Shown: positions 3,648 to 30,710, counted from the stretch's first letter. The stretch is 32,000 nt of DNA from Acaryochloris marina MBIC11017 (GCF_000018105.1 NC_009925.1:2250001-2282000), one strand, 5' to 3'. Notes: generated from the sequence alone by a model not told the origin. Numbers and translations are program-made.

Positions 3648-4310
3648 CTAAGCCGGTGGCTCAGCATGATGTTTGATCCAGCTTTTGAGTTCTCTTAGGG
3701 CCTGGGCCTCACCGGCCGTTTTGCCCTGTTGCAAAAAGTGATAGAAAACCTCTTTCGGTACCCACGGGAAGGTGGGACTAGCATCAACCTCTCGGTACTG
3801 ATCCTGCTCAAGCTGGTAGATGGTCAATACTGAGCCGTTAAATCGCCAAAACTCGGGTACACCAAAACTGGCGTAGAGATTATTTTTATCGATATCTGCA
3901 TGGGTAATATCGACTTCTACTACTAAGTCAGGGGGCGGATCTTTTTCTAAATCAACAGTTCTACCTCGCACGAGGGGTTCATTTTGGATGTAATAGCATT
4001 TGTCTGGTTCGGCTCCTTTCTGTAAGGATTGGCGGCGGAGGGTGGTTGAAGCCATGCTTTTAATATTGAGACCGCTGTCAATCACTAGTGCTTTGATAAA
4101 GTCGCCAATCACATCACTGGGATTTTCATGGGCTTCTAAAGGAACCATAAATTCTAGTAGACCTAGGTCATAGTGCAACCGCGCAGCTCGATGTTCGCCA
4201 AAGGCATTCAGTAATTGTTCATAGGTGTCCCAAGACACATTCATCAAGATGAGGCGCTGCTCAGCAGGCTTTGTGTCGATCGTTTCAGTTACAGGTAGCT
4301 GAGTTTGCAT
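3648..4310 (-). CDS. Uma2-family (DUF820) restriction-endonuclease-like protein
   Basis: 220 aa. Typical Uma2 layout: SWDTYEQLL..., RLHYDLGLLEFMVP, EPDKCYY, PPDLVVEVDITH, ...YASFGVPEFWRF. The family is very abundant in cyanobacteria. Confidence 0.85.
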   Translation of the reverse strand: MQTQLPVTETIDTKPAEQRLILMNVSWDTYEQLLNAFGEHRAARLHYDLGLLEFMVPLEAHENPSDVIGDFIKALVIDSGLNIKSMASTTLRRQSLQKGAEPDKCYYIQNEPLVRGRTVDLEKDPPPDLVVEVDITHADIDKNNLYASFGVPEFWRFNGSVLTIYQLEQDQYREVDASPTFPWVPKEVFYHFLQQGKTAGEAQALRELKSWIKHHAEPPA

Positions 4311-4368
4311 GATCTCTAGACTCCTGAGTCTTCACCTCCTCCAGCATAAGCGGTGAAATTTATGTTGC

Positions 4369-4398
4369 AAAAAAAATCACTCATCTATAAGAGATGAG
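4369..4398 (-). terminator. Rho-independent terminator, minus strand
   Basis: Plus strand has A8 (4369-4376), then a 7-bp stem CTCATCT/AGATGAG (4380-4386 / 4392-4398) with a 5-nt loop. On the minus strand this is a hairpin followed by T8. Confidence 0.5.
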
Positions 4399-4436
4399 CG
4401 AGAGGAGAGTTTTGATACCCAATGAGAGAGAAGAAA

Positions 4437-4643
4437 TTATGAACAAGCTTCAGGTGCTGAATATGGCATTGTGTTTGGGCGATTAAAAATGAGATCAAAG
4501 TCTATGCTTTTCATTGTCTGAACAGGTGTGGAGCCCGTTTGTTGAGTGTAAGCAACCATTTGCTCCACTGGAGAATATGCTTCAGTTCTAAGGGCAGAAC
4601 CGAGTACTTTGCCTGCGATCGCAAATGAAATAAGGACAAGCAT
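4437..4643 (-). CDS. Possible small membrane/secreted protein (68 aa)
   Basis: ORF with a hydrophobic N-terminus (MLVLISFAIAGKVLGSAL). It ends ~40 nt upstream of the minus-strand terminator at 4369-4398. No homology recognised; it may instead be a non-coding transcript. Confidence 0.25.
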   Translation of the reverse strand: MLVLISFAIAGKVLGSALRTEAYSPVEQMVAYTQQTGSTPVQTMKSIDFDLIFNRPNTMPYSAPEACS

Positions 4644-4805
4644 GGGACAACTCTCAACTCACTGGGGATGTCGGTTAACAACAAGGCAACAAATGTATCT
4701 TTATGTAAATCAAGATAACATTTATGTAAATAAAGCGCAACATATATTGACATATTATTTTTTTCTTGCTAACCAGTTTTACCTGCGCGCCACAAAAAGA
4801 AAGAG

Positions 4806-4832
4806 TTGACATCTACCTACTAGATGGTAGAT
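4806..4832 (+). promoter_or_regulatory. Putative tetR promoter (-35 TTGACA) overlapping a 22-bp near-palindromic operator
   Basis: TTGACA at 4806-4811. ATCTACCTACTAGATGGTAGAT at 4811-4832 is palindromic at 9 of 11 pairs. It shares ATCTACCTACTAG with the second site at 5428-5446. Confidence 0.45.
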
Positions 4833-5411
4833 ATTCAAAATATGGAAAAAAACACTGCCACTCAAATCCTGGATGTTGCTCAAGAGATGGTGCGAAACCG
4901 AGGCTATAGTGCCTTTAGTTACGCCGATATCTCCAAGCAAGTCGGGATTCGCAAAGCTAGTATTCACTATCACTTTTCTACTAAAGATGAGTTAGTGAAG
5001 GAACTGGTGAAGCGATATCGGGAGGACATGATGCGGGCCTGCGATCGCATCACCCAATCCAACGCCAGTCTTGATCAGCAGATAGTTCAATTTGCCCATC
5101 TTTATCGCAATGGTTTAGAAGACAAACAGATCTGTCTCTGTGCCATGTTGGCTGCAGACTATGCCGTTCTTCCCCAACCGGTTCGCGACGAGATTCAAGT
5201 CTTCTTTCAGGAAACGGAAACCTGGCTCACCAATCTCCTCCAACAGGGATGCGATGCCCAACTTTGGACCTGTCAGCCGGAGCAGGAAGCTAAAGGGTTA
5301 ATTGCCCTGCTCCAAGGTGCTCAGTTACTAGCTCGTTCAGCAACGGACAGCACTACCACCTTCGAGCAAATGGTTTATCCCCTCTTAGCAGCCAAATTTC
5401 CCAGTCGCTAA
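4824..5411 (+). CDS. TetR/AcrR-family transcriptional regulator
   Basis: N-terminal TetR HTH (ILDVAQEMVRNRGYSAFSYADISKQVGIRKASIHYHFSTKDELV). An alternative start at ATG 4842 (MEKNTATQ...) is plausible given the promoter geometry. Confidence 0.85.
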   Translation: MVDIQNMEKNTATQILDVAQEMVRNRGYSAFSYADISKQVGIRKASIHYHFSTKDELVKELVKRYREDMMRACDRITQSNASLDQQIVQFAHLYRNGLEDKQICLCAMLAADYAVLPQPVRDEIQVFFQETETWLTNLLQQGCDAQLWTCQPEQEAKGLIALLQGAQLLARSATDSTTTFEQMVYPLLAAKFPSR

Positions 5412-5430
5412 ATTTTTTTGCTTCACTATC

Positions 5431-5446
5431 TACCTACTAGTAGGTA
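5431..5446. promoter_or_regulatory. Perfect 16-bp palindrome TACCTACTAGTAGGTA, putative TetR operator upstream of the SDR operon
   Basis: Perfect dyad symmetry read directly from the sequence, 39 nt upstream of the SDR start at 5485. Same half-site as the operator at 4811-4832. Confidence 0.45.
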
Positions 5447-5484
5447 TTTGAATTAATTCACCAGTCTATCTATAGGAGTTCGTC

Positions 5485-6267
5485 ATGTCTCAAGCCTTTA
5501 CAGGTCAAAAACTCATCGTTGTTGGTGGCACTAGCGGCATGGGCAAAGCCGTTGCCCGCATAATCCTTGAACAAGGAGGGTCCGCAGTCCTGATTGGTCG
5601 CCAACCCGAAAAACTCCATGCAGCCGTTGAGGAATTAAAGGCCTATGGTCCAGTATCAGGTGAGCAAGCTGATATTGCCAACCCAGAAGAGCGTCAAGCT
5701 CTGATCGCCCGCCTCAATCAGTCCTATGCCGATGCCACCCTATTAGTGAACGCGGCTGGCGTCTTTCTACCCAAACCTTTTCTGGAGTACGAAGAAGCCG
5801 ACTACGATCTCTACTTAGAACTGAACAAAGCCACTTTCTTTATTACCCAAGCCGTCGCCCAGAACATCATTAACCACCATCACAAAGGAGCCATCGTCAA
5901 TGTCGGTTCCATGTGGGCCAAGCAAGCCGTCCAGGCCACTCCATCCTCTGCCTACTCCATGGCTAAGGCCGGACTCCATTCCCTTACCCAGCATCTCGCC
6001 ATGGAACTAGCCGATCATCATATTCGAGTCAATGCCGTCTCCCCCGCAGTCGTTGCCACCCCCATCTATGAAGGCTTTATTCCCAAAGAAGAGGTCCATG
6101 GAACCCTACAAGGCTTTAATAGCTTTCATCCCATAGGTCGCATCGGCACCCCTGAAGATATCGCTGAGACCATTGCCTTCTTACTATCCGACAAAACCAG
6201 CTGGGCGACAGGCGCAATCTGGGATATTGATGGTGGCGTCATGGCCGGTCGAAACCAGTACAGCTAG
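5485..6267 (+). CDS. SDR-family (short-chain dehydrogenase/reductase) oxidoreductase
   Basis: Rossmann motif [11 protein letters not shown]; NAAG; catalytic S...YSMAKAG (YxxxK); C-terminal GAIWDIDGG. Confidence 0.9.
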
Positions 6268-8061: not shown

Positions 8062-8666
8062 TGAGATGCAGGAGACTGGGAGAGATAATCGGCTATCGAC
8101 GAGAAGGAAAATGCAACGCCTAGGATTAAGATAATTCCTCGTATGATATTGAGCATCAAATAACGCTCCTGTTGTGGCGTGAGTCGCCGTCTCAAAATGA
8201 TGCGGAATAGATCATTTCGAGTACGCTCTACTTCTACCCAGAAGGAGATCCAGAAAATGACGAGGATGATGAGCGGTAACACCAATCGATCTTGAGCCGA
8301 ACCATAATCCATATCCCCAGAAGACAAAAGCAACAGGTGGAAGCCATACCAAAACACAGACCAAAACCCGAAAAAGATCAGCACTGAAGGATGGGGGGTG
8401 AGGGTGAGATGAATAACGGTCCCCCCTGCAAATGTTTCAAACCGTCCTTTAATGTAAGGTTCGCTGGCATTTGGACGACCCATGGGAATGCGGCTCATCT
8501 TACAACCAGACTGTGTCACTGATCCTTCATAGGGCGCATGGTTAAGGTCATAGGTTGAGCGAAATGTTTTGGGAGACTCTATTTGGGCTTCCAATCTCTC
8601 CATCACTGTTTGCAAAGGGGCAGAAGTTTGAATCACAAAGTGATCGCGCGGTACAAGGTGAACCAT
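8031..8666 (-). CDS. Membrane protein, paralog A of a tandem pair
   Basis: 211 aa with a soluble N-terminal domain followed by TM segments. Clearly paralogous to 8940..9431 (MVHLVPRDHFVIQT.../NHAPYEGSV/IKGRFET.AGGTV.H/FW.SFWVEVER.R.DL). Confidence 0.7.
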   Translation of the reverse strand: MVHLVPRDHFVIQTSAPLQTVMERLEAQIESPKTFRSTYDLNHAPYEGSVTQSGCKMSRIPMGRPNASEPYIKGRFETFAGGTVIHLTLTPHPSVLIFFGFWSVFWYGFHLLLLSSGDMDYGSAQDRLVLPLIILVIFWISFWVEVERTRNDLFRIILRRRLTPQQERYLMLNIIRGIILILGVAFSFSSIADYLSQSPASHQVPEIFRPR

Positions 8667-8939
8667 AGTTGATCACTCACTTTAAAGATTTTGAAACGAC
8701 AAATGAATGCCAGAGATACTGAGCAGATGCGATTTCAGATGGCGTGATTGTCCAGCAGTAGGTCTACCAAAACGAGGAGCACCCAAAGAGACTGGCTATC
8801 TATACCTAACGTTTTCAACAGGTGTCATCTGTCTCGATTCCCAGCAGAGATAACTTTTCAACGATTTGAGGCTGGCTGATGTGCAGCTTCTTTTCAATTC
8901 AAAGGTCAATATTGCACGGATAGCGTGCATCAGCGTTGT

Positions 8940-9431
8940 TTAATGGCGTGTCACATGTCCACCGATGATGTTCAGCAAATCTTTACGACTGCGCTCCACC
9001 TCTACCCAGAAACTCATCCAGAAGATGAATAGCACAAATAAAGGCAATCCCAAGACCAGTAAAGCTTCAGAATTAGCCACCTCCCCTGACAAGCCGATTG
9101 CTAAAGCACCACTGTAAAAAGAGAGAAACCACATCACTAGAAAGCTCATAACAAAAGGGTGAAGCTTCATAGAGATATGCACGACCGTTCCCCCTGCAGG
9201 TGTCTCAAAACGGCCTTTGATTTGGGGAATAAACGAGTTACGTCCCTGGGGAATTCGGTGCATCGTAAAGCCCGATTCTGAAACAGATCCTTCATAAGGG
9301 GCATGGTTGCGTTGATAGGACCATCGAAATGCCTTCGGAGCTTCTACATGAGCGTCCAGGCTTGCTATAACGTTTGGCAATGCAACGGGTGTCCGGATGA
9401 TAAAGCGATCCTGCGGTAAAAGGTGAACCAT
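8940..9431 (-). CDS. Membrane protein, paralog B of a tandem pair
   Basis: The track ORF starts at 9440 (MIIMVHLL). Alignment with paralog A supports a start at MVHLL (9431). It lacks the C-terminal extra TM of paralog A. Confidence 0.7.
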   Translation of the reverse strand: MVHLLPQDRFIIRTPVALPNVIASLDAHVEAPKAFRWSYQRNHAPYEGSVSESGFTMHRIPQGRNSFIPQIKGRFETPAGGTVVHISMKLHPFVMSFLVMWFLSFYSGALAIGLSGEVANSEALLVLGLPLFVLFIFWMSFWVEVERSRKDLLNIIGGHVTRH

Positions 9432-10004
9432 GATGATCACTCACTTTTAGATTCTTGAAACGACGATTAAATGTCAGGAGTACTCAGCAGGTCCGGTTTC
9501 AGGTGGAATATGTTTCTAGACATAGATCTATCCAACCAGAAAGCCGATTGAGAGATGGAACATCTGTGCTGTAGTTCCTAGCCAGATGCAATAGGTATAC
9601 TCAATTGGCTCTATCAGAGATATTTCTGCTTAGAGGTTACTGCTGATTTACTGCCAGTCGATGCCTTTCAGGTCTGATGGCGATTGGATGTGCTTGCCAT
9701 CTGGTGAACTGATGCTGGGCAGCTTCTACCCTGACATGCAAAGAAGTAATCTTTTATTCCTCTGATTGCTTCTTCAACATCTATGATCTGGTATCCATGA
9801 CTTAAATTCAGTGATCGGCATCATACGATGAGTCTCATCTCAGCTAGAACGGCTCGGCACGCAGCAATCAGGGGCGTCAATGGGGTGTCTTTAGAGACAT
9901 TAGGCTATGGCGAGCATGGCAGGAGCGATCGTCTGCCGTGCAGGTAAGGATGCGACAACGCTAATGTTGAGACAGCCATACCTGTCCTGCAATGGAGACA
10001 AATC

Positions 10005-10868
10005 ATGAGTAGCGACTATACGCCCCCCAAAGTTTGGCAATGGGATTCTGAAAGTGGGGGGACTTGGGCCAAGATTAACCGCCCCATTGCAGGGCCAACC
10101 CATGAGCAAGACTTGCCCGTGGGTAAACATCCTTTGCAGCTCTATTCCATGGCAACCCCCAACGGCCAAAAAGTCACCATCATACTAGAAGAACTGTTGG
10201 CATTGGGTGAGGCTGGGGCTGAATACGATGCCCATTTAATCAAAATTGGAGATGGCGATCAGTTTGGCAGTGGATTTGTGGATGTTAATCCCAACTCCAA
10301 AATTCCGGCTCTTGTAGACCACTCCACTTCAACCCCAGCTCGCGTCTTTGAATCTGGAGCTATCCTCCTATACCTAGCAGAAAAATTCGGCCAGCTCCTA
10401 CCCACAGAACATGCAGCTCGCACCGAATGTTTGTCCTGGTTATTTTGGCAGATGGGTTCAGCGCCCTATCTGGGAGGGGGATTTGGTCATTTTTATAGCT
10501 ATGCTCCCGCCAAAATTGAATATTGCATCAACCGTTTCACCATGGAGGTGAAGCGCCAGCTTGACGTCCTGAATCGTCATCTTGAAACCCACTCATTTAT
10601 GGCTGGCGACGATTACTCAATTGCTGATATTGCCATCTGGCCTTGGTATGGCGGGGTAATTCGCAATACTCTATACGATGCCGCAGAGTTTATCGATGCC
10701 CCCTCTTATACCCATGTGGTTCGCTGGGCTCAGAATATCGCTGATCGCCCAGCAGTCCAGCGGGGCCGCATGGTCAACCGCACTTGGGGAGCCTTGTCAG
10801 AACAGCTCCATGAACGCCATGATGCCGGTGATTTTAATATTAAGACGCAGGATAAGCTTAACCCGTAG
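10005..10868 (+). CDS. yghU: YghU-type (Nu-class) glutathione S-transferase / GSH-dependent disulfide oxidoreductase
   Basis: 287 aa. YTPPKVWQWD...GGTWAKINRPIAGPTHEQDLPVGKHPLQLYSMATPNGQKVTI..EEL and DGDQFGSGFVDVNPNSKIPALVD are characteristic of YghU/YfcG-like GSTs. Confidence 0.85.
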   Translation: MSSDYTPPKVWQWDSESGGTWAKINRPIAGPTHEQDLPVGKHPLQLYSMATPNGQKVTIILEELLALGEAGAEYDAHLIKIGDGDQFGSGFVDVNPNSKIPALVDHSTSTPARVFESGAILLYLAEKFGQLLPTEHAARTECLSWLFWQMGSAPYLGGGFGHFYSYAPAKIEYCINRFTMEVKRQLDVLNRHLETHSFMAGDDYSIADIAIWPWYGGVIRNTLYDAAEFIDAPSYTHVVRWAQNIADRPAVQRGRMVNRTWGALSEQLHERHDAGDFNIKTQDKLNP

Positions 10869-18028: not shown

Positions 18029-18102
18029 CGGGGCGTAGCGCAGCTTGGTAGCGCACCACTTTGGGGTAGTGGGGGTCGTGGGTTCAAATCCCGCCGCTCC
18101 GA
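18029..18102 (+). tRNA. tRNA-Pro (anticodon GGG)
   Basis: Hand-folded 74-nt cloverleaf: acceptor CGGGGCG/CGCTCCG, D-stem GCGC/GCGC, anticodon stem CCACT/AGTGG, loop TTGGGGT (anticodon GGG), T-arm GTGGG-TTCAAAT-CCCGC, discriminator A. No encoded CCA. Confidence 0.9.
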
Positions 18103-18104
18103 TT
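18056..18104 (+). repeat. attL: 49-bp direct repeat (3' half of tRNA-Pro from the anticodon stem, plus 2 nt)
   Basis: CCACTTTGGGGTAGTGGGGGTCGTGGGTTCAAATCCCGCCGCTCCGATT is identical at 30655-30703. Confidence 0.85.
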
Positions 18105-18220
18105 GACTGTAATTCTTATATCTGGCAAGGCTTGAAGGCTACTGATACTAGCTTTCAGGTCTATTTTTGTGCAATCAATATGCATTGAAATAAGTCCGTT
18201 AAAGCTGGTTAGTCGTTTAG

Positions 18221-18244
18221 TTGGCCGGATAGATTGGCCGGAAG
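18221..18244 (+). promoter_or_regulatory. Candidate integrase arm-type site (TTGGCCGGA x2), attL side
   Basis: TTGGCCGGATAGATTGGCCGGAAG lies 10 nt upstream of the integrase GTG. An identical 24-mer is at 30575-30598. Confidence 0.4.
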
Positions 18245-18253
18245 GATTAACCT

Positions 18254-20633: not shown

Positions 20634-22202
20634 GTGAATAAAGTGAATTCTTCAACAAATAATCCACAAAATTTTTCTAGCATACTTGATGTTGCGATAG
20701 GGTATCTAGACTTAGGTTCGTCACCTCTACCAGTGGCACCAAAACAGCCTAATTCCAATTTTAATGGGAAAAATCCAAGCTATTTAGATGAACAAGGTAA
20801 GGCTTATCTAATTAGTAGCAAGCAATATCAGAATAAGCAACCAACTCGTACAGAGATAGATCTATGGTTTGCTAACCCTGAAAATGGCATTGGAATCCTT
20901 GGTAATAATCACTTGCATATAGTTGATGTCGATACCAAGCATTTCGATAGTAAGGAAGTATGTGAGCAAGTCGTTAATAAATGGCTGGATAAGCATTCTC
21001 AACTGCATGATGCTCAGGTAGAAAGAACTCTTAGTGATGGCTTCCACATATATGTAGAGTTTGCAGAGCCACCAGGGTTTACACGCTTTGCTTTTAGTGA
21101 GGGTGGATCACACGTAGGGGAGATCCAAGGGCCAAATCAGTTCACTGTCGTGGCACCCACTGTTGGTTACCAGGTAGTACAGAAAGGTAGATTCGCCCCT
21201 GTCATCGATGCTGAGTCTATTGGGCTGTACTCAATCAAGAAGGCTAAGAAAGCTAAAGCAAGCAGGTCTGATCAAGTCCAGAAAACAGTAAGAATCAAGC
21301 CAGAAAATAGTGATGCTTTATCCCTGCTGGAATTATCCACAAGGGGGGTCCAGGCAATATACCAAAGTCAACCTGAGTCTGATGATAGGAGTAAAGACAT
21401 CACCAAAGTTGCTAACGAGCTTTATGGTTGGGCAAATTGGTGTGAAGCAAATAACCTGGCTTATGATCCAGAGCCTCGAACTCTCCTTGTGGATCTTGCA
21501 TCTAACTTGGACATTGATGAGGACAGATTAGACAGAATCATTGATTCCATAGACATTGATGACTGTCAACCAGCTTGTGTATATGAAGGGGGAGATGAGG
21601 CAGCTTGGAAGAAGATCAAGAAGCTATCAGTAGATGTGGAACTAGAGGAAGTTACCACAAAAATATTGATAGACAGCACAATCATAAAGCCTCCCCAACT
21701 CTTTCATAAATCGTTATATGGCCCACTCAGTGATCTTGCATCAAATCTTGAGTTACCAGTAGAAGCTTTTCTTGTTTGTATTCTTCCTATCCTGGCTTCA
21801 AGGCTTAAGGCTGAGACAAGGCTAATAATCGATCCAGGAACTGGCTACCATGTACCGCCAATCATTTGGGCTGGTTTAGTAGGTGAATCAGGAACCATGA
21901 AAAGCCCCATTCTTAAGCTCCTCACTAGACCTTTGTCGAGGTTGCAACAAGAAGTCCACGAGAGCTATCAACTGGAAGTCTCTGAGTATGAAAAGGATTT
22001 GCAACGGTTTCAGTCTCGGTCCAAAAAACTACCTATCACCCCAGAAAAACCTAAGCATCCCAACATGAGAGATTTATTTTTCTCTGACTTTACGATTGAG
22101 GCCATTGCCGATTCCATCTGTCATCATCCATCAGAAGGCTATCTAATCCATATAGATGAGTTGGCTGGATTCTTTAAATCGATGGATGCCTATCGTAATT
22201 GA
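20634..22202 (+). CDS. Prim-Pol (bifunctional primase/polymerase) N-terminal domain plus the start of a DUF3987/YfjI-like helicase domain; ends at an in-frame TGA
   Basis: Prim-Pol motifs HIVDVDTKH (DxD) and SDGFHIYVEF. Later P-loop-like GLVGESGTMKSP. The same frame continues open after TGA 22200-22202. Confidence 0.75.
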   Translation: MNKVNSSTNNPQNFSSILDVAIGYLDLGSSPLPVAPKQPNSNFNGKNPSYLDEQGKAYLISSKQYQNKQPTRTEIDLWFANPENGIGILGNNHLHIVDVDTKHFDSKEVCEQVVNKWLDKHSQLHDAQVERTLSDGFHIYVEFAEPPGFTRFAFSEGGSHVGEIQGPNQFTVVAPTVGYQVVQKGRFAPVIDAESIGLYSIKKAKKAKASRSDQVQKTVRIKPENSDALSLLELSTRGVQAIYQSQPESDDRSKDITKVANELYGWANWCEANNLAYDPEPRTLLVDLASNLDIDEDRLDRIIDSIDIDDCQPACVYEGGDEAAWKKIKKLSVDVELEEVTTKILIDSTIIKPPQLFHKSLYGPLSDLASNLELPVEAFLVCILPILASRLKAETRLIIDPGTGYHVPPIIWAGLVGESGTMKSPILKLLTRPLSRLQQEVHESYQLEVSEYEKDLQRFQSRSKKLPITPEKPKHPNMRDLFFSDFTIEAIADSICHHPSEGYLIHIDELAGFFKSMDAYRN

Positions 22203-22310
22203 AAAGGGGCTGATAGGCAGAGGTGGTTAACTTTTTATGGTGGGGACTCTCTCAAAGTTAATCGAAAATCTTCTGAGCCGATCTATATCCCTAAAACCTC
22301 AATCAGTTTA

Positions 22311-23219
22311 TTGGGAAGTATTCAGCCTTCAGTGTTAGGGAAATTGGTATTAGATGATCCCACATCGGAAGATGGCCTCTGGCCCAGATTCCTGTGGTTT
22401 CGTCTGCCAATAACAACTCCACCAGGAATCTCAGATAGGCCGAAGCTTGATTTAATGCCCTTACTGAAAGGTGTTTACTGTGGCCTAAATGAGCTTGATG
22501 CCCAAGAGCACCGACTTTCAAGGGGAGCAATAGGGGTATGGAATCAGTGGAATCATGAGATAGGCCAGCTTATCCAACAAGAACCATCCAATATTCTCAG
22601 AGCTATATATCCAAAGTTCAAGGAGATTGCAGGCCGAATTGCCCTCATTGTTCACACCACAAATTGGGTATTAGACCAGTTAACTCTCACAGAGGGTTCA
22701 TCTACTTTTGAGGAGTCCATTATCCCTGGAATCCGGCCAATAGAGAGTGAGATCTCTGCAGAAACACTCACTGATGCTATTCAATTCACCAAATGGCTCA
22801 TGGGTCAAACTAGAAGCCTCTACTGTGAACTTGGATTATCAGACAAGGAATCATCCAGAGTTGTCAGATGCATCAATCGTTTTAGGGGATGTGGATGGAT
22901 TAAGGCTAGAACCATTACTCAATGGTGGGGGTCTACATCAAGACCTAAGGTTCAACAGGCACGAGAGTTTATGAGTCAAATTGTTGCACTGGGATATGCC
23001 ATTGATAATGGTAAGTCAGTGAATGATTCCAAATACCAAATCAAAATCACCGTACCTACAAGCCAATCCACACTTAATGCAGTAGGTGGTAAAAGTGTTG
23101 GTACGAGTTGGGAAGAAGTTGGCCACCATCCCAACAGGCTTAAAGCCATAGAGGAAAGTAGTTCCAGGGATTCTGTTGGTAATGTTGGCACATTTCTAGA
23201 ACAGAAGGTCAACAGATAG
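22311..23219 (+). CDS. C-terminal part of the DUF3987-like primase-helicase (same frame as 20634..22202)
   Basis: The frame is open from 22203 (KGADRQRWLTFYGGDSLKVNRKSSEPIYIPKTSISLLGSIQP...). It has no convincing start of its own. 22311-20634 is divisible by 3. Confidence 0.65.
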   Translation: MGSIQPSVLGKLVLDDPTSEDGLWPRFLWFRLPITTPPGISDRPKLDLMPLLKGVYCGLNELDAQEHRLSRGAIGVWNQWNHEIGQLIQQEPSNILRAIYPKFKEIAGRIALIVHTTNWVLDQLTLTEGSSTFEESIIPGIRPIESEISAETLTDAIQFTKWLMGQTRSLYCELGLSDKESSRVVRCINRFRGCGWIKARTITQWWGSTSRPKVQQAREFMSQIVALGYAIDNGKSVNDSKYQIKITVPTSQSTLNAVGGKSVGTSWEEVGHHPNRLKAIEESSSRDSVGNVGTFLEQKVNR

Positions 23220-24256: not shown

Positions 24257-24604
24257 AGAAGTAGTATCAAGAAGTCTATAGTCGAGAATCATCTGGGAAA
24301 TTATGCTGTCACCCGCTTAACTATATTAAAAGGGATGGTCAGTAAAGATCATGATCATACGCTAATTGAATATCCCCCATCGAAATCGATCAGTGACATA
24401 GCCAAGCGGTTGAAAGGGTTCACATCAAGGCGACTTCAGCAAGAGTATCGAGAGTTAGAGCGGCGATATTGGGATAAATATCTGTGGGCCTTAGGTTATG
24501 GAGCCTGGAGTACAGGTAATATCAGTGAACAGATGGTGGAGGAATATTTGGAGCATCACCGTCTCGTGTCTAATAACGATATAAATACGTTCATGCTGGA
24601 GTGA
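24257..24604 (+). pseudogene. 5'-truncated IS200/IS605-family TnpA (Y1 HUH transposase) remnant
   Basis: ...YAVTRLTILKGMVSKDHDHTLIEYPPSKSISDIAKRLKGFTSRRLQQEYRELERRYWDKYLWALGYGAWSTGNISEQMVEEYLEHH matches the C-terminal ~2/3 of TnpA. The HUH motif is degenerate (HDH) and the N-terminal ~35 aa are missing. Flanking hairpins at 24206-24220 and 24657-24671. Confidence 0.65.
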
Positions 24605-24728: not shown

Positions 24729-25202
24729 CTATTTTGAATATTTACCAACTACTATTCCAATAAAACCTCCAGCTAACGAAATAGATAATTTTTCACATAA
24801 ATCTATGAAGTTTTTTTCATTATATGCCAAAGGCTCTTTAAAGTAATAAGCAGACCACCAGGCACCCACAAATGCAGCTATCATCAAAAGAGCACAAACT
24901 ACAAGCATTACTTGATAACTTGGACTTAAATTAATAGCTGTTGGATTTAGTATCTTATCTTGAAGAAGTTCAACTTGCTTTTCAAGTGTCTCAACCTGGC
25001 CCTTTAGATGTTCTATAAACTCTTTATCCGTTCCTTCATGCACATGAAAACTATCTACTACTTTCGTAGTAAGACTTTTATCATTATTCGCTGGATACCT
25101 AAGAAAACTTTTTGGCTTTAGGGGATTATTAAAAGATAAGATAATTATTTTAAGGAGGTCTAAAAATATAAATAATCTAGTAGTCTTTTTAGTTCTAATC
25201 AT
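24729..25202 (-). CDS. Coiled-coil protein with two C-terminal TM helices (cargo cassette gene D)
   Basis: 157 aa. Heptad-like EFIEHLKGQVETLEKQVELLQDKIL. TM segments YQVMLVVCALLMIAAFVGAWWSAYYF and LSISLAGGFIGIVVG. Very AT-rich. Confidence 0.55.
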   Translation of the reverse strand: MIRTKKTTRLFIFLDLLKIIILSFNNPLKPKSFLRYPANNDKSLTTKVVDSFHVHEGTDKEFIEHLKGQVETLEKQVELLQDKILNPTAINLSPSYQVMLVVCALLMIAAFVGAWWSAYYFKEPLAYNEKNFIDLCEKLSISLAGGFIGIVVGKYSK

Positions 25203-25666
25203 ACTTTAGTGGGAGTTGATTAACTAAGTCCAGCTCACATGCCCCTGAAAAGTCACAAAGAATTTATACAGAATTTTATATGTTTAGGTTTTTTATTCTC
25301 TTGAAATAAATTCTTTATTTATATCTGTGCTCATAAAGTTTTTATAGCAATTACCAAATTATATATATTGAAGTTTATATGTGTATATTTCAGTCGAAAA
25401 GTGAATTTTCGTAGTTAACTTTGTCTACCTTTGAGGTCAACATAAGTTTATTACAAAGAGTTTACTCAACGAAGTCAATAGAGGCTTAAAAATCACGTAA
25501 ATATGCAGAATCCCAACATTATATACACAAGATAGTATGGAGTCAAAACGTTTGAAACACAGAAAATTGTTATTTAGCCTTACATATGTAGGTACGAACC
25601 CTAATTCACATTTTGCTCATGAAGAAGAGTTCATAAGTAGCGGTTTTGAATGCTGATCAACTGATG

Positions 25667-26080
25667 TTAATGGGTAAGAAAATATTCTTCTCCATTAAAA
25701 CACGCCTCTAACTCATCTAAAATATCTCTACCTATCAATGCGATTTCTCTACTCCAAGCTAAAACAGACCTATTTGGAAGAATAATTCCATCCAACCTAA
25801 TCGATAGGGAATATGGATCATAAAAACCATGCCCTCCTACACCATAACTTATAACCGCAGGACCAATAAGAGGTGCATTCAACTCGAGTATTAGATCTTT
25901 AGGTATAAATGTTATAGGTGAACCAGTATCCAAAAGGCCATAGCAAGAAGAATCTTCGCCGAAAACAAATTCTTCTTGATAAGGTAGAGAAAGTGCAATT
26001 CTTGCAAAAGGTCCGCTCCTCACCGTATTACTATCAGAATCATGAGAATTAATATAGGGAGGAGTGATGTATTGTGGCAC
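25667..26080 (-). CDS. Retropepsin-like (clan AA) aspartic protease (cargo cassette gene C)
   Basis: 137 aa, the size of one retropepsin monomer. Active-site LLDTGSPITFIP and the flap-distal ALIGRDILDEL (compare the retroviral DTG and GRD/N motifs). Its start lies 7 nt after the stop of the upstream gene. Confidence 0.6.
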   Translation of the reverse strand: MPQYITPPYINSHDSDSNTVRSGPFARIALSLPYQEEFVFGEDSSCYGLLDTGSPITFIPKDLILELNAPLIGPAVISYGVGGHGFYDPYSLSIRLDGIILPNRSVLAWSREIALIGRDILDELEACFNGEEYFLTH

Positions 26081-26087
26081 TTATTAG

Positions 26088-26834
26088 CTATTCCTTAGGA
26101 AGCGGTGTAAAGACCCCATAATTATCACTTGTTTTAGACACTTTTTTTATGAAGATATTTTTACTTCCTCGAAATTCTCCAGCAACTTTAGTTACCGCAG
26201 CCATTGAATTACCAGCATACAATACTTCTCCATCATGAAATAAAACATATTGGCCAGCATATTTTTTGATTAATTCATCAAGTTTTTGGTTGAACAGATG
26301 ATTTTGCCTTTCAATATATTTTCGGGGTTCTTCAAAACCATCCATTTCTAGCTTTACCTTCTCAGCGGATTGGGCTAGAACACCAATCGTATTTACATCA
26401 TCTACAACATTTTCTTCTAATTGGCCCTCATGAAAAAAGGCGCTTGCAACATTTGCACCTTTTTCAATTAAAACCTCAGTGCAGAAGTGGTGACCGATAT
26501 CTGGGCAAACTGTTGCTACATGAGGGGATAGATAAGGATGTTGATCACCTGTATTTAGCAATTCACGAGAATGTTGTATTGATTTGTTTGCTAAGTCGTT
26601 TCCATCATTCAAATATCTCCCTTCATCTATATCATGATGGGGGGCATGATCTTTGCAAACTTGCTGTTCTCGCGCAGCCAAATGCGCTTCTTTCACCTGA
26701 ATTATATTTAAGACCCCAATACCACAGCTAACGGGTGAAATTGTTCTAAAGTGGCAAGACAATTCTTTAGTCCATCGACTTTCCAAGTCAGCCAATTTTC
26801 TAGAGGTATAAACGACTCTCTTAGGGTAAACCAT
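26088..26834 (-). CDS. Cys/His-rich protein with a DUF5678-like C-terminal module (cargo cassette gene B)
   Basis: 248 aa. N-terminal region has SCHF, VSCG, VCKDHAPHHD and VCPDIGHHFC. The C-terminal LDELIKKYAGQYVLFHDGEVLYAGNSMAAVTKVAGEFRGSKNIFIKKV matches my memory of DUF5678. Confidence 0.55.
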   Translation of the reverse strand: MVYPKRVVYTSRKLADLESRWTKELSCHFRTISPVSCGIGVLNIIQVKEAHLAAREQQVCKDHAPHHDIDEGRYLNDGNDLANKSIQHSRELLNTGDQHPYLSPHVATVCPDIGHHFCTEVLIEKGANVASAFFHEGQLEENVVDDVNTIGVLAQSAEKVKLEMDGFEEPRKYIERQNHLFNQKLDELIKKYAGQYVLFHDGEVLYAGNSMAAVTKVAGEFRGSKNIFIKKVSKTSDNYGVFTPLPKE

Positions 26835-26897
26835 GGCTAAAAATATCTTGCTAAAGGACGAAACATCAAAAGCTATCTAGTTGAGGGAGAAACTACT

Positions 26898-27806
26898 TTA
26901 ATCGGATAATATTTTCTTTGCATTGTAATAAACAGTAGAAAACTGAGTAAACATCAATTGATTTATTAAATAAATTGACAAAATATCAGTAAGAATTTGT
27001 ATAAAAAATCTATCTTCGAGCTTAAAATATTCTACATTGATATGGTCAAAACATAGAAATCCAAATAAAGCTCGCTGAGTGGAGCTAATAATTTGAAACT
27101 TTTCAATAAATTCTTTCCTTAACTTTTTCGTTGCCAAAGAAACTGGAAGTATAAGCGTGGATTTATAACACGTTTCTGGGGGAGATTCAATACTTTCTTT
27201 AGAGCCCACCCTTGAAACTGGAGACCAGCAGCTGACCCATTCTTGATCATACCTATCTCTGAACTTTCTACTGTGATCAACACTATGAGTTGTAGCATAT
27301 ATATATGCTGCCTTATCTTTTATCCTTATGTTCACATATTTTCCATTTGCAATTTCGTTAGGTATATTATTGCACAAATAAAAATCTTTACCCTGAGCAA
27401 TCTCAAGAAAACCTGTATTAGCTGAAATTTCAGTGTTGTTGTCTGACAAAAATGACTCTGGTATCTTTAAAAGAGTTGCTAGTTTGTCCTTAGAAATAAC
27501 TTTAAGAGTTAACCGTGGTGATATGTTTGACCTACCCTGAAAATATACCAATGAATACTTATAAGCCTTCTCAAAAATTCTCCCAAAATCATCTAAGAAA
27601 AAGCCGTCAAAATCAGCTAATAATTCTCTCAGGTGATCTTCTTCATCTTTACTTATCTCTTGCTTATCTGAAGTTATAGATTGGATACATTGTCTTAGAT
27701 TTTTATGATTTTCATTAACCATAAAAATATGCTGCAATAAACTTGTTTGACTACTGCAAACATAATCACTTAAAAGCTCTAATAATTTTGATTCAATCTC
27801 ACTCAT
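26898..27806 (-). CDS. Hypothetical protein, possibly GAF-like sensor fold (cargo cassette gene A)
   Basis: 302 aa. C-terminal STLILPVSL...RALFGFLCFDHINVEYFKLEDRFFIQILTDILSIYL resembles the end of a GAF domain. No catalytic motif seen. Low-confidence fold guess. Confidence 0.5.
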   Translation of the reverse strand: MSEIESKLLELLSDYVCSSQTSLLQHIFMVNENHKNLRQCIQSITSDKQEISKDEEDHLRELLADFDGFFLDDFGRIFEKAYKYSLVYFQGRSNISPRLTLKVISKDKLATLLKIPESFLSDNNTEISANTGFLEIAQGKDFYLCNNIPNEIANGKYVNIRIKDKAAYIYATTHSVDHSRKFRDRYDQEWVSCWSPVSRVGSKESIESPPETCYKSTLILPVSLATKKLRKEFIEKFQIISSTQRALFGFLCFDHINVEYFKLEDRFFIQILTDILSIYLINQLMFTQFSTVYYNAKKILSD

Positions 27807-29070
27807 TATTTTATGATTTTTAAGGTCTAACTGAGATTCATAAGTATCTGCTTAATTAAGTGAATATTTTCAAGAATTTAGTAGGATATAATGAAAAAAT
27901 AATTAACCCAACAATATCACTAATAGAATTTAGCAGATTGTATATTTCTTTACAAACAATCGTTTTTTTTGCAGTTTAACTATAGCTCATTCTTGTATTA
28001 AGCTGCTTCAGCAATACCCCTGAGAAAAAATTAGAATTCGCTTATTGTTTTCATTAGAATTACCGATGCATTTTTCTCAAGGAAGCAATAAGAAGAGTTG
28101 GATCCACAAAGAAAGAAAACTTTCTGTATAATATTATACTATTTTAAAGCGATTATGGCTTTTGCCCCAGATTGTTTCATTGAAGCAAGCGATCATGAAA
28201 GGATAATCTATTGTGCTCCAAAGACGAGAATTCGTGTTTTGCAGCCCTGTAAGAGTTTTTTCTTTCAGAAAGGGTTGTATACGGTAACACACTTAGATAT
28301 TCTCCTGCTTGTTGGCTATTCATGTTGATTTTTGGGGCTCTCTATTCTAGAGTGTAATTTTTTTTAGGTAGTTTATTTATACTTAATGACTATTATCTTT
28401 CTGTGGTTTTGCCAAATAATACGCCGATTTTACATTTCTTATTGCCAATCTCTGCTTTTTTATCATTCTCTCCCGCTTATATTAAGGATTTATAGTTGAT
28501 GGCTTTTCGAAAACCTTCTAAAGTCTTTTCTAATTCGCGAGATCAAAGTTGAGATTTTATAAAGTAAAACCAATTGTTTGATTTAAGATAAAGTCAGTTT
28601 ATAGAGATGACCTCCACAATCTCTAAGTCAATGAATAGCTAGGGTTGCCCCTGAACCTTGGATATTCTAATAAATAGGAAGTAGCACAGAGCTTGAATAA
28701 ACTTGCCAATGACGTAGTAAGCAAAACAATGATGTAACTACTTGAAGTTGAAAAAGTAAACAAAAATTGTTAGGTTGCAAGTACCTTGAATTAATGGATG
28801 AGTCAGTCACCAGAGTAATGATTAAAATCAACAGGTAAATTTGTAATACTGGAAACTGGCCGGAAAGTTGAACAAAGCTGTTTCATGGGAGTATTCCCAA
28901 AACGGGACAATAATCTGAAACGCTCCCCAGGAATTTTACCTAGTGAATTTGGCACTGGTCTCTTAACAAGGCGCACGTCTAAAACCTTTATTGGTTATGA
29001 GTTCTAACATGCTAAGCGGGCGTGAAGAAAATCCCATCTCCATCGCTGGCGTAGTCTGCTTGCTGAGCCC

Positions 29071-29637
29071 TCAATGGGGTCTAACCCAGTTATGAATCAG
29101 CCGTTGTACGTCTAGCACTCTCTGAAAACCCGACTGCTTCTTAGCGTAGAGATTCTGCCTTTTTCGATAAGCACTACATCGTCTCCTCAAGGCAGCATTG
29201 TGAGCCTCGTTGTGATTGGCATGGACCTCAGATGCTGGACTGATAGCGGTAAAGGGATGCTCTGCTTTCACCCACTTCACCCACTTCACTCGCCGATTCG
29301 CCTGAAATCCTTTAACTTTCATCGCGACTTCTAATCCGTCTCGCCAAACCTTGCGATGCCCATAATCAGGGTGACACTCCTCAGCGTTGAGAGAGACACT
29401 GGCGAGCTTCCAAAGTTCTTGTCCATAGCGTCTTTCTCCATCAGTAAACCATTGAATCCCATCACAGGTTTTCATCCACTCCCAAGCTGATTGAACGCCA
29501 TCAATAAAGAGTTGTTGATCCTTGAGACCAGCCTGTGCTGTAAACCAATAACGGCTCGCGCGCTCAAGGAAGTGGATGGTCCAGCCCTGGGACTGGCTAG
29601 AGGGGAAGATTTTCGCATACACGAGTGTAAACTTCAT
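29071..29637 (-). CDS. IS1 InsB-like DDE transposase catalytic part (+1 frame relative to InsA)
   Basis: WFTDGERRY (second D) and HANHNEAHNAALRRRCSAYRKRQNLYAKK (E region) parallel IS1 InsB MTDGWPLY / IERHNLNLRQHLARL. 41-nt overlap with the InsA frame. Confidence 0.75.
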   Translation of the reverse strand: MKFTLVYAKIFPSSQSQGWTIHFLERASRYWFTAQAGLKDQQLFIDGVQSAWEWMKTCDGIQWFTDGERRYGQELWKLASVSLNAEECHPDYGHRKVWRDGLEVAMKVKGFQANRRVKWVKWVKAEHPFTAISPASEVHANHNEAHNAALRRRCSAYRKRQNLYAKKQSGFQRVLDVQRLIHNWVRPH

Positions 29638-29968
29638 CCCCTTCTACCGTCACATCAGAACTTGCTGGAGCTGGGGGTGACCAGTTCAGTGCCTGATCTG
29701 CTAGGTGCTTTTCCCACCGCATAATGGTGGTATGAGATGTCCCAAAAGTACGACCCGTTGCACGGACTCCCATTCCTTTGGTGCGAGCCTTGATGGCATA
29801 GCTCACCACTAAACTGGTGGTGCGTAAGCGAGCCATTGGGTTACCTGTGCGTTCTTTGAAACGCCGATTGCAATCCTCACACTGATATCGCTGGACTAGT
29901 GTCCCATCTTGCAGGCTATCAAAGCCTCGTTTATGGATCTTCTGGCTCTGGCAGCATGGGCATTCCAT
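29597..29968 (-). CDS. IS1 InsA-like (zinc finger plus HTH) ORF
   Basis: CPCC...CEDC zinc ribbon. GMGVRATGRTFGTSHTTIMRW HTH resembles IS1 InsA. It ends with GDEVYTRV (first DDE aspartate region). Confidence 0.75.
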   Translation of the reverse strand: MECPCCQSQKIHKRGFDSLQDGTLVQRYQCEDCNRRFKERTGNPMARLRTTSLVVSYAIKARTKGMGVRATGRTFGTSHTTIMRWEKHLADQALNWSPPAPASSDVTVEGDEVYTRVCENLPL

Positions 29969-30300
29969 TGATCTACATTACGTTGTGTCGGAGCCATTCT
30001 AGCTAGATCCAGTTGATAGACCAGTGCCAATTAGACCGCTTTGATAGCATTAACTCTGGATAATAGTAGTTTTTTTCCTTTTACTGGCGTATTTTGTACT
30101 GTGGAAACTTTGTTCAGTTTAGAAGTACTTGAGTTTACTACCCTTATTTTTCCATGTTAACTGGGTAAAGATACGTAGCTATGATATAAGTCCGACAACC
30201 TTACCTGAAGTTATATAAGCAATACTTATACTTCCCTGTTATCTGGGATTAATCTTGTCGAAACTGGGTACTCTAAGGTTAACGTTTTTGACTTTTCGTT

Positions 30301-30574: not shown

Positions 30575-30598
30575 TTGGCCGGATAGATTGGCCGGAAG
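30575..30598 (+). promoter_or_regulatory. Candidate integrase arm-type site (TTGGCCGGA x2), attR side
   Basis: Identical 24-mer to 18221-18244 in the same orientation, 56 nt before the attR core. Confidence 0.4.
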
Positions 30599-30654
30599 CA
30601 TTTGGAAGAAGCCTTGTAAGTCTTGCTAGACAAAGATTTTGTAGATCATGTGAC

Positions 30655-30703
30655 CCACTTTGGGGTAGTGGGGGTCGTGGGTTCAAATCCCGCCGCTCCG
30701 ATT
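30655..30703 (+). repeat. attR: displaced 3' half of tRNA-Pro (49-bp direct repeat)
   Basis: Identical to 18056-18104. The preceding sequence does not complete a tRNA. Confidence 0.85.
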
Positions 30704-30710
30704 AACTTAG

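Follow-up and report, generated by a model that had tools for sequence, protein, structure and literature searches.

In several bacterial systems a protease controlled by a GAF domain cleaves a partner protein that is encoded next to it. In particular, this is the case for CapH/CapP, which is associated with CBASS (signalling against phages by cyclic oligonucleotides), and for IrrE/DdrO, and such pairs are tied to defence systems and mobile elements (bioRxiv 10.1101/2022.04.27.489752). In logic, these are the closest described counterparts of the locus analysed here, which occupies positions 24729-27806 of a 32,000-nucleotide (nt) window of the Acaryochloris marina MBIC11017 chromosome (the window hereafter is this whole stretch) and encodes proteins that we denote A, B and C: a GAF-like protein, a DUF5678 protein and a small retropepsin-like aspartic protease. 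The likeness lies in a GAF sensor that would control a protease acting on an adjacently encoded partner. The components differ: in CapP and IrrE, a GAF domain and an HExxH zinc metallopeptidase make up one fused protein, whose partner is a helix-turn-helix (HTH) repressor, whereas the window encodes a separate aspartic retropepsin, a separate protein combining a helical hairpin with a GAF-like domain, and a DUF5678 partner in which no HTH domain was detected. A Pfam scan of A, B and C identified neither a metallopeptidase nor an HTH domain, and no sequence relation to CapP or IrrE was found, which places the locus outside that group. We propose, with a rough probability of 0.45, that A-B-C is a sensor-gated aspartic-protease conflict module, probably of the anti-phage or abortive-infection type, carried as cargo of a genomic island; this function is one that we infer from the organization of the locus and its relatives.

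The A-B-C gene order and the DUF5678-retropepsin pair

The three genes and the principal motifs of B and C are located in the window as follows (aa, amino acids).

26898-27806, minus strand: gene A (AM1_2277), 302 aa
26088-26834, minus strand: gene B (AM1_2276), 248 aa
26136-26276, minus strand: DUF5678 domain of B, residues 187-233, a helix plus a beta-beta-alpha-beta unit
26103-26108, minus strand: invariant Thr243-Pro244 in the tail of B (VFTPLPKE)
25667-26080, minus strand: gene C, 137 aa, GTG start
25922-25930, minus strand: catalytic motif D51-T52-G53 of C, within the invariant LxDTG
25724-25732, minus strand: G117-R118-D119 of C, aligned to the GRN/GRD of retroviral proteases

The gaps are 63 nt between A and B and 7 nt between B and C, and a fourth minus-strand gene, D, follows C after 464 nt. 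An earlier note on this DNA had described four co-oriented open reading frames (ORFs) with these sizes and spacings, and all coordinates and gaps matched. That note also asked whether the genes co-occur in other cyanobacterial genomes, and for A, B and C they do. An exact-word protein search with A retrieved only 7 related clusters, the contigs of which were inspected for neighbours; next to every close relative of A (40-56% identity), homologues of B and then C come after A, arranged and oriented as in the window. The A-B-C order is found in at least five further independent loci (L001/L005, L002, L006/L007, L012 and L050/L051), apparently all cyanobacterial; among these, L012, a metagenome-assembled genome (MAG) of Coleofasciculaceae, came from a genome scan with A, and L050/L051 from a protease-profile search. 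The B and C proteins of the syntenic loci are just 23-33% identical to those of the window, so the conserved order reflects more than recent common descent, and because homologues exist and keep their order elsewhere, the three ORFs are beyond chance. The syntenic loci share a further gene, x, which encodes a small protein of ~100-130 aa with three transmembrane segments, is convergent with C, starts 4-70 nt past the C stop codon, and is present in all A-B-C loci with enough downstream sequence. Judged by this conservation, the unit would be A-B-C(-x). No x remnant is present in the window, the C-D spacer included, and tblastn with x against the window gave no match; we read this as a loss of x from the window copy.

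Profile and motif evidence identifies C as a small retropepsin-like aspartic protease of clan AA, in agreement with the original assignment. The LLDTGS sequence at residues 48-53 contains the catalytic motif, with L49, D51, T52 and G53 invariant in 32 relatives. The family profile aligns over the whole fold with the protease of human T-lymphotropic virus 1 (HTLV-1; E-value 3e-7), with DTG and GRD/GRN in register, and with that of human immunodeficiency virus 1 (HIV-1), for which the E-value is 5.7e-9 for tethered dimers and 3.4e-4 or weaker (~1e-3) for single 99-residue chains. Matches of the window C itself to the Pfam models Asp_protease_2, gag-asp_proteas and RVP are weak and below the gathering score (16.7 bits against a cut-off of 24.3); four of five close relatives and many distant ones likewise match Pfam aspartic-protease models weakly. 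In the word-indexed protein search, C retrieved only itself, and more distant relatives came from a profile search; tblastn with B and C against plasmids gave no match. Neither a signal peptide nor a transmembrane segment is apparent in C, which is thus predicted to be cytoplasmic, and with ~130 aa and a single DTG it is presumably a homodimer.

The size of ~130 aa, the DTG and GRD/GRN motifs and the whole-fold profile similarity are features that C shares with the HIV-1 and HTLV-1 proteases and Ddi1 and, among bacterial proteins, with RimB, APRc and Pseudomonas aeruginosa Rlo. Like RimB, C is small and has no predicted signal peptide (PMC11957791), whereas the APRc and Rlo proteins, unlike C, are membrane-bound or secreted (PMC4140852, PMC12239564). 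C also differs from RimB, APRc and Rlo in belonging to a distinct clade and in being almost always preceded by a DUF5678 gene. We know of no characterised bacterial retropepsin-like enzyme with a DUF5678 partner.

Protein B consists of a long, poorly conserved N-terminal region predicted with low confidence, a C-terminal DUF5678 domain and a conserved tail. Against the Pfam DUF5678 model (PF18929, cut-off 23.2 bits), full-length B scores 23.1 bits and its isolated C-terminal 88 aa score 25.3 bits. Homologues of B range from 165 to 312 aa and are conserved in the C-terminal third only, the N-terminal region varying in sequence as well as in length. The protein had been described as a Cys/His-rich DUF5678-like protein; the domain assignment holds, but the Cys/His richness is confined to this copy, with no Cys or His column invariant among the homologues. 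A single-sequence AlphaFold2 (AF2) prediction of B has a mean predicted local distance difference test (pLDDT) score of 42, with only residues ~183-234 at 60-80, and a comparison of DUF5678 with sequences of solved structures returned only a short spurious hydrogenase match. One sampled A. marina-like sequence (L011:1418-1619, Logan SRR4784082) differs from the window by a single-base indel that leaves B with 202 aa; this could be a strain variant or an assembly error.

The pairing of B with C extends far beyond the A-B-C loci. A metagenome scan with an 11-sequence alignment of the C family yielded 78 loci with a C relative, in 69 of which a DUF5678-like ORF lies immediately upstream of the protease on the same strand, most of the other 9 ending at a contig edge. 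The gaps within these pairs are mostly -3 to +10 nt, and the Pfam DUF5678 model is matched by 29 of 37 partner domains (best E-value 3.9e-9). The partners range from 61 to 324 aa, with DUF5678 always C-terminal, and the minimal pairs combine a partner of 61-81 aa with a protease of ~148 aa. The tails after DUF5678 include IYTPF, IPSPR, IDTPFF and QVTPF in the relatives and conform to (I/V)(Y/F)TP(F/L) in the A-B-C clade. In one locus (L052:1404-4405), a GAF histidine kinase gene is followed by a gene for a response-regulator receiver fused to a DUF5678-like domain and then by the retropepsin gene, by its domain content a two-component-system version of the B-C pair. The N-termini of the partners thus range from none to a receiver domain, a variability that would suit a region serving as input or adaptor. 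Elsewhere the pair is found by itself on chromosomes or, in one case, beside excisionase and integrase genes, and none of the 78 loci contains A or x. Taken together, these data show B-C to be one instance of a widespread, tightly coupled DUF5678-retropepsin two-gene module, with B a predicted dedicated partner of the protease, as the idea of a protease with a partner had anticipated. In the literature, we found no description of a DUF5678-retropepsin pair or of an A-type GAF module in defence. In one subgroup of the metagenomic pairs (for example, L083, L118, L120-L122, L127, L129 and L132, among L055-L132), B and C overlap by 22-25 nt, which could indicate translational coupling or, possibly, a frameshift fusion.

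The family of protein A

Protein A comprises an N-terminal helical hairpin (residues 3-88, its helices spanning 3-46 and 53-88) and, C-terminal to it, a GAF-like alpha/beta domain (98-300). The AF2 model, built on seven homologues, has a pLDDT of 85.4 and a predicted template modelling (pTM) score of 0.83. A Foldseek comparison with PDB retrieved almost exclusively GAF domains (probability 1.0, E-values 2e-4 to 4e-3), including those of phytochromes and cyanobacteriochromes, the cyclic AMP (cAMP)-binding Lcd1, sensor-kinase GAFs and free methionine sulfoxide reductases (fRMsr), with template modelling (TM) scores of 0.5-0.68 normalised to isolated GAF domains (3o5y, 3e0y, 5w10). On this basis, A can be called GAF-like, as it had been before, at the level of the fold only. 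Comparison with viral structures gave nothing informative past generic GAF and helical proteins, and A has no match in Pfam, NCBIfam or PADLOC. In the alignment, the window protein retains all the residues conserved in the family, namely R98, K102, N146-x-IP149, Y157, N159, R161, W190 and W194, as well as CYKST at 213-217 and GxLCxDH at 249-255. Conservation of R98, K102, N159, R161, K215, S216, T217, D254 and H255 is suggestive, and only suggestive, of small-ligand binding in the pocket.

When 1.84 billion representatives were searched in full with a hidden Markov model (HMM), 574 clusters at 50% identity matched with E<=1e-3, 320 of them with E<=1e-30, and A is thus a member of a sizeable family that has no name. 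Most members are stand-alone proteins of ~300-330 aa that span the whole hairpin and GAF-like module. Several carry an additional N-terminal domain: GT4-conflict (two members), PNP_UDP_1 (one), caspase-type Peptidase_C14 (two), adenylate/guanylate cyclase (Guanylate_cyc; one), TIR_2 (four) and a CAP12/Pycsar-type TIR (two); PADLOC assigns the fused N-terminal parts to CBASS/Pycsar-type TIR and PN effectors and to PycC. This repertoire is that of immune or conflict sensor or regulatory modules and favours a role in conflict. At least 11 members (P0102, P0132, P0087, P0154, P0065, P0082, P0113, P0111, P0078, P0125 and L035:7809-8885 among them) have an unnamed N-terminal domain of ~100 aa that has no Pfam match.

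In the combination of an N-terminal TIR, PNP or caspase domain with a C-terminal sensor-like domain, these relatives of A resemble the effector fusions of CBASS, Pycsar and Thoeris (TIR-STING/Cap12, PycTIR, TIR-SAVED). However, the C-terminal domain of the A family is not SAVED, STING, cyclic nucleotide monophosphate (cNMP)-binding or SLOG; genes for a cyclase or another enzyme that makes a signal do not regularly adjoin A, a short conserved peptide being found instead; and the window A, unlike these fusions, has no fused effector at all.

This peptide is encoded by a short ORF (~45-90 aa) located directly downstream of distant A homologues (loci L013-L049 and L054; for example, L023:8890-9135, L022:8925-9119, L047:448-642 and L054:6902-7129) and contains the motif [ST]xNNxL[VY]x[VI][DG]xxL[ILV]x[YF]A[RKQ]. 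An HMM derived from 11 such ORFs identified four more at E <= 7.5e-7 and, weakly, a fifth in L025 (E 4.6e-4; this ORF was called on the opposite strand). All are located just downstream of A, and the sole other ORF below E 0.001 among 5778 was an A ORF itself (L020). Five A homologues (P0140, P0135, P0109, P0097 and P0128) carry the motif as a C-terminal fusion, and the TIR-A and GT4-A fusions retain the short partner. On this pattern, the peptide looks like an obligate partner of the A family. One A homologue and its partner (L054:5920-7129, IMG/VR UViG_2634166859_000001) are located within a prophage, on the opposite strand, between the genes for the portal protein (4115-5518) and the large terminase subunit (8660-10456), by gene order a typical moron-like position.

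The 38 genome loci with A homologues come from Cyanobacteria, several proteobacterial classes, Desulfobacterota, Nitrospirota, Acidobacteriota, Campylobacterota, Bacteroidota and one archaeal MAG, and L012 is the only one among them that contains B, C and x. An all-against-all BLAST comparison of the genes next to A, together with a Pfam scan of 120 of these neighbours, revealed only heterogeneous genes and no conserved third protein beside A in the wider family. The two large neighbours in L012 had no match among PDB sequences. The most distant A-like genes of the first search (29% identity; L003:8001-8960 and L004:8001-8786) are solo, with no B, C or x, and lie beside yajC-secDF and ribosomal-protein genes, next to copies of a Transposase_mut insertion sequence (IS).

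A putative sensor-gated protease module and the competing explanations

Drawing on the folds, motifs, synteny, domain fusions and B-C coupling described above, we envisage the following scheme for the binding pairs, trigger and targets of the module. A would be the sensor or switch, its cue being a phage protein or a small ligand that occupies the GAF-like pocket, and sensing could go through this pocket or through the hairpin. The DUF5678 domain of B and its x-(S/T)-P-x tail would dock on C, as an inhibitor, a pseudo-substrate or a cleavable latch; retroviral proteases characteristically accept X-Pro sites. The variable N-terminus of B would serve as the adaptor that links it to A, such that, on an infection-linked cue, A would relieve the hold of B on C, and freed C would cleave cellular or phage targets. 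C would thus be the effector, in place of the caspase or TIR domains fused to A in other members of the family, whereas x, in the loci that have it, is perhaps a membrane target or a second effector. The locus had previously been read as a sensor, a protease with its partner and a membrane effector; synteny and the fusions are consistent with the first two parts, D does not qualify as the effector, and a role in defence is conjectured from the relatives of A. A broader generalization is more tentative, and we regard it as somewhat unlikely: A would represent a widespread family of immune switches that are gated by a short peptide, can be plugged into TIR, caspase, nucleosidase, glycosyltransferase or cyclase domains, and have been wired in cyanobacteria to the DUF5678-retropepsin pair. 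On that view, the unit would be the first anti-phage system with an HIV-type aspartic protease as the effector, and the common two-gene pair would gain a function.

A number of observations weigh against a sensor-gated conflict module. The similarity of A to GAF domains is at the fold level only: comparison with Pfam GAF, GAF_2 and GAF_3 gave nothing at E<=1, and a search of PDB sequences with the family profile found no GAF chain. In the A-B-C clade, A has neither a fused effector nor the small partner peptide. Because no effector is fused to A and no trace of the peptide is found in B, a physical link from A to B is a conjecture; in particular, comparison of the partner motif with B by hhalign gave a probability of 0.07%, and the motif HMM scored no better on B than on shuffled B. 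The control between B and C could run in different directions, with B an inhibitor, a substrate or an activator. The window unit, with x missing where all other complete units have it, may itself be incomplete or inactive. The genes next to 36 A homologues have mostly housekeeping functions, the only defence-like ones being two AbiEii and two cytosine methylases, and these do not demonstrate an enrichment of A homologues in defence islands. Finally, PADLOC-DB v2.0.0 has no match for A or B; this agrees with the earlier view that the locus is no named defence system and fits novelty, but fits a role outside defence equally well. The remaining PADLOC results were short and not significant (C with PDC-M08B, E 0.057; D with an ABC permease model, E 0.0019), and the B, C and x families gave nothing better than E 0.018.

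The B-C pair could instead be a toxin-antitoxin (TA)-like addiction or stress module, in which a protease toxin and a DUF5678 antitoxin stabilise mobile elements; A and x would then be accessory regulators confined to particular lineages, and no part of the unit would be dedicated to phage defence. The pair is compact, with spacing suggestive of translational coupling and a scattered distribution over genomes and mobile elements, and its small co-directional genes, mostly separated by -3 to +10 nt and reduced in the minimal pairs to 61-81 aa and ~148 aa, indeed resemble type II TA pairs; such pairs are found on their own in many unrelated settings, some of them integrative elements, and the window copy itself is on an island. 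However, toxicity of C and its neutralisation by B are predictions only, no DNA-binding domain typical of antitoxins was detected in the B-like proteins, and the fusions of A-family proteins to immune effectors are left unexplained. The window pair also differs from type II TA modules in being embedded in a larger unit with A (and with x in the relatives), and we know of no TA family with an aspartic-protease toxin or a DUF5678 antitoxin. We therefore consider this explanation unlikely, although TA and abortive-infection roles overlap, such that it does not separate cleanly from a conflict function of the whole unit. Quite unlikely, too, is a purely physiological signalling system, in which A would bind an endogenous small molecule (for example, a bilin, a metabolite or a cyclic nucleotide) and control the proteolysis of B or other targets by C. 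GAF domains are classical small-molecule sensors, and the top fold matches of A are the phytochrome/cyanobacteriochrome and cAMP-binding GAFs; moreover, the L052 pair follows a GAF histidine kinase and has a response regulator as its B-like protein, the contexts of A homologues are largely housekeeping, and RimB and other known small retropepsin-like enzymes of bacteria have regulatory roles (PMC11957791). Such a role sits poorly with the patchy, sporadic spread of these genes (the exact-word search gave only 7 clusters related to the window A), with the low-GC island that carries the window copy and the existence of a prophage-borne one, and with fusions to TIR, caspase, PNP and GT4-conflict domains, which typify conflict systems rather than housekeeping signalling.

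A may also be not a sensor but an effector or enzyme with a GAF fold that uses Cys, Asp and His together with CYKST, in the manner of the GAF-fold free methionine sulfoxide reductases, and that is processed or regulated by B-C. The invariant C213, K215, S216, T217, C252, D254, H255, R98, K102 and R161, the presence of fRMsr/YebR (1vhm, 1f5m, 3mmh) among the fold matches, and the fact that most members of the family stand alone, at ~310 aa, and carry no additional effector are compatible with an enzyme. Yet C213 is not kept in the wider family ([CF]YKST), and a variety of fused enzymatic domains typifies a shared module for regulation or sensing more than an enzyme, so we find this account improbable. 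Hardly any credence can be given to a chance cluster of decaying or spurious AT-rich ORFs in island junk. The region is AT-rich, with IS remnants on either side, a split PrimPol/DUF3987 gene, a D protein that has no relatives, and in one strain an indel that truncates B; A, B and C, however, are intact with all family-invariant residues, and their order recurs in at least five other loci, where the proteins are 23-56% identical. Given this conserved synteny, the chance reading is effectively refuted for A-B-C, and it could apply only to D.

If the proposal of a sensor-gated conflict module is correct, A would represent a sensor family of 574 clusters that has no Pfam, NCBIfam or PADLOC model, with a module that occupies the position of the SAVED, STING or cNMP-binding domains of known immune effectors but has a peptide, not a nucleotide cyclase, as its partner. 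It would also assign a role to the DUF5678-retropepsin pair, which is common in soil, sediment and cyanobacterial metagenomes, and would provide an aspartic-protease effector. Regulated proteolysis by a retroviral-type protease in bacterial conflict would be relevant to how retropepsins arose and are used outside retroelements. Should the function prove not to be anti-phage, the strict coupling of B to C and the conserved (S/T)-P tail make for a testable protease-partner hypothesis. Built of unnamed parts, A-B-C can be regarded as a modular sensor-effector system and a good candidate for an anti-phage or conflict role.

Gene D and the island

The remaining features of the cassette and of the island around it are the following.

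24729-25202, minus strand: gene D, 157 aa
25203-25666, minus strand: AT-rich C-D spacer, 464 nt, with an 11/12 sigma-70-like promoter match at 25546-25518
18029-18102: transfer RNA gene tRNA-Pro(GGG)
18056-18108, plus strand: attachment site attL, the 3' part of tRNA-Pro(GGG) and left end of the island
30655-30707, plus strand: attachment site attR, direct repeat (53 nt, 98% identical) of the 3' end of the tRNA
24335-24604: IS200 Y1 transposase remnant
28949-30030: IS1-family element, ~1.08 kb, with 19-nt inverted repeats at both ends

Protein D has a predicted coiled coil and two C-terminal transmembrane segments. It clusters with no other protein, being seen in A. marina alone, and no relatives were detected in the first fetched loci (L001-L004, including two syntenic ones), in plasmids or in viral contigs. 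Its identity with a divergent x was considered and rejected, with an hhalign probability of 0.4% in addition to the blank tblastn search. Since D is a singleton, is unrelated to x and is preceded by a promoter match in the C-D spacer, it is best treated as a neighbour outside the conserved module and is probably a separate transcription unit with its own promoter. The earlier note had counted D in the cassette, as the membrane component of the system; the conserved membrane partner of the relatives is x, which the window does not contain.

The attachment repeats bound a 12.6-kb island with a tyrosine integrase gene beside the tRNA gene, PrimPol/DUF3987, the IS200 remnant and the IS1-family element, and this island also occurs in a second A. 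marina assembly. These findings bear out the description of the cassette as cargo of a tRNA-integrated island with IS200 and IS1 elements on either side. The island resembles P4-like and other integrase-primase satellite islands in combining a tyrosine integrase with PrimPol/DUF3987, in its insertion at a tRNA gene with direct-repeat attachment sites, and in its cargo of lower GC content close to the distal end. It differs in its cyanobacterial host, in the split PrimPol/DUF3987 and in its invasion by IS elements, and the other A-B-C-x loci are not visibly located on such islands. The GC content is 33.5% in the cassette, compared with 41.9% in the island backbone (integrase to DUF3987) and 48.9% in the left core; by part, it is 31.0% in A, 37.9% in B, 37.4% in C, 30.4% in the C-D spacer and 31.0% in D. 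The low-GC contrast noted previously is thus real, but the figure given for it, 23-30% for 60-nt lines, was somewhat low, these lines having a median of 33% and a range of 15-48%.

Several minor features of the island can be added. PrimPol/DUF3987 (20634-23219) is represented by two ORFs of 522 and 302 aa, with DUF3987 divided between them, as in the second A. marina assembly (L008), and the island replication gene may have been inactivated. The IS1-family element has two overlapping ORFs (123 and 188 aa) and a GC content of ~50% against AT-rich flanks. The ~1.1 kb between the start of A and this element (27807-28948; 34% GC) contains no ORF longer than 76 aa and has no Rfam match. Just within both ends of the island, at 18221-18248 and 30575-30602, lies a 28-nt direct repeat, TTGGCCGGATAGATTGGCCGGAAGGATT, the two copies of which are 96% identical and are possibly arm-type binding sites of the integrase.

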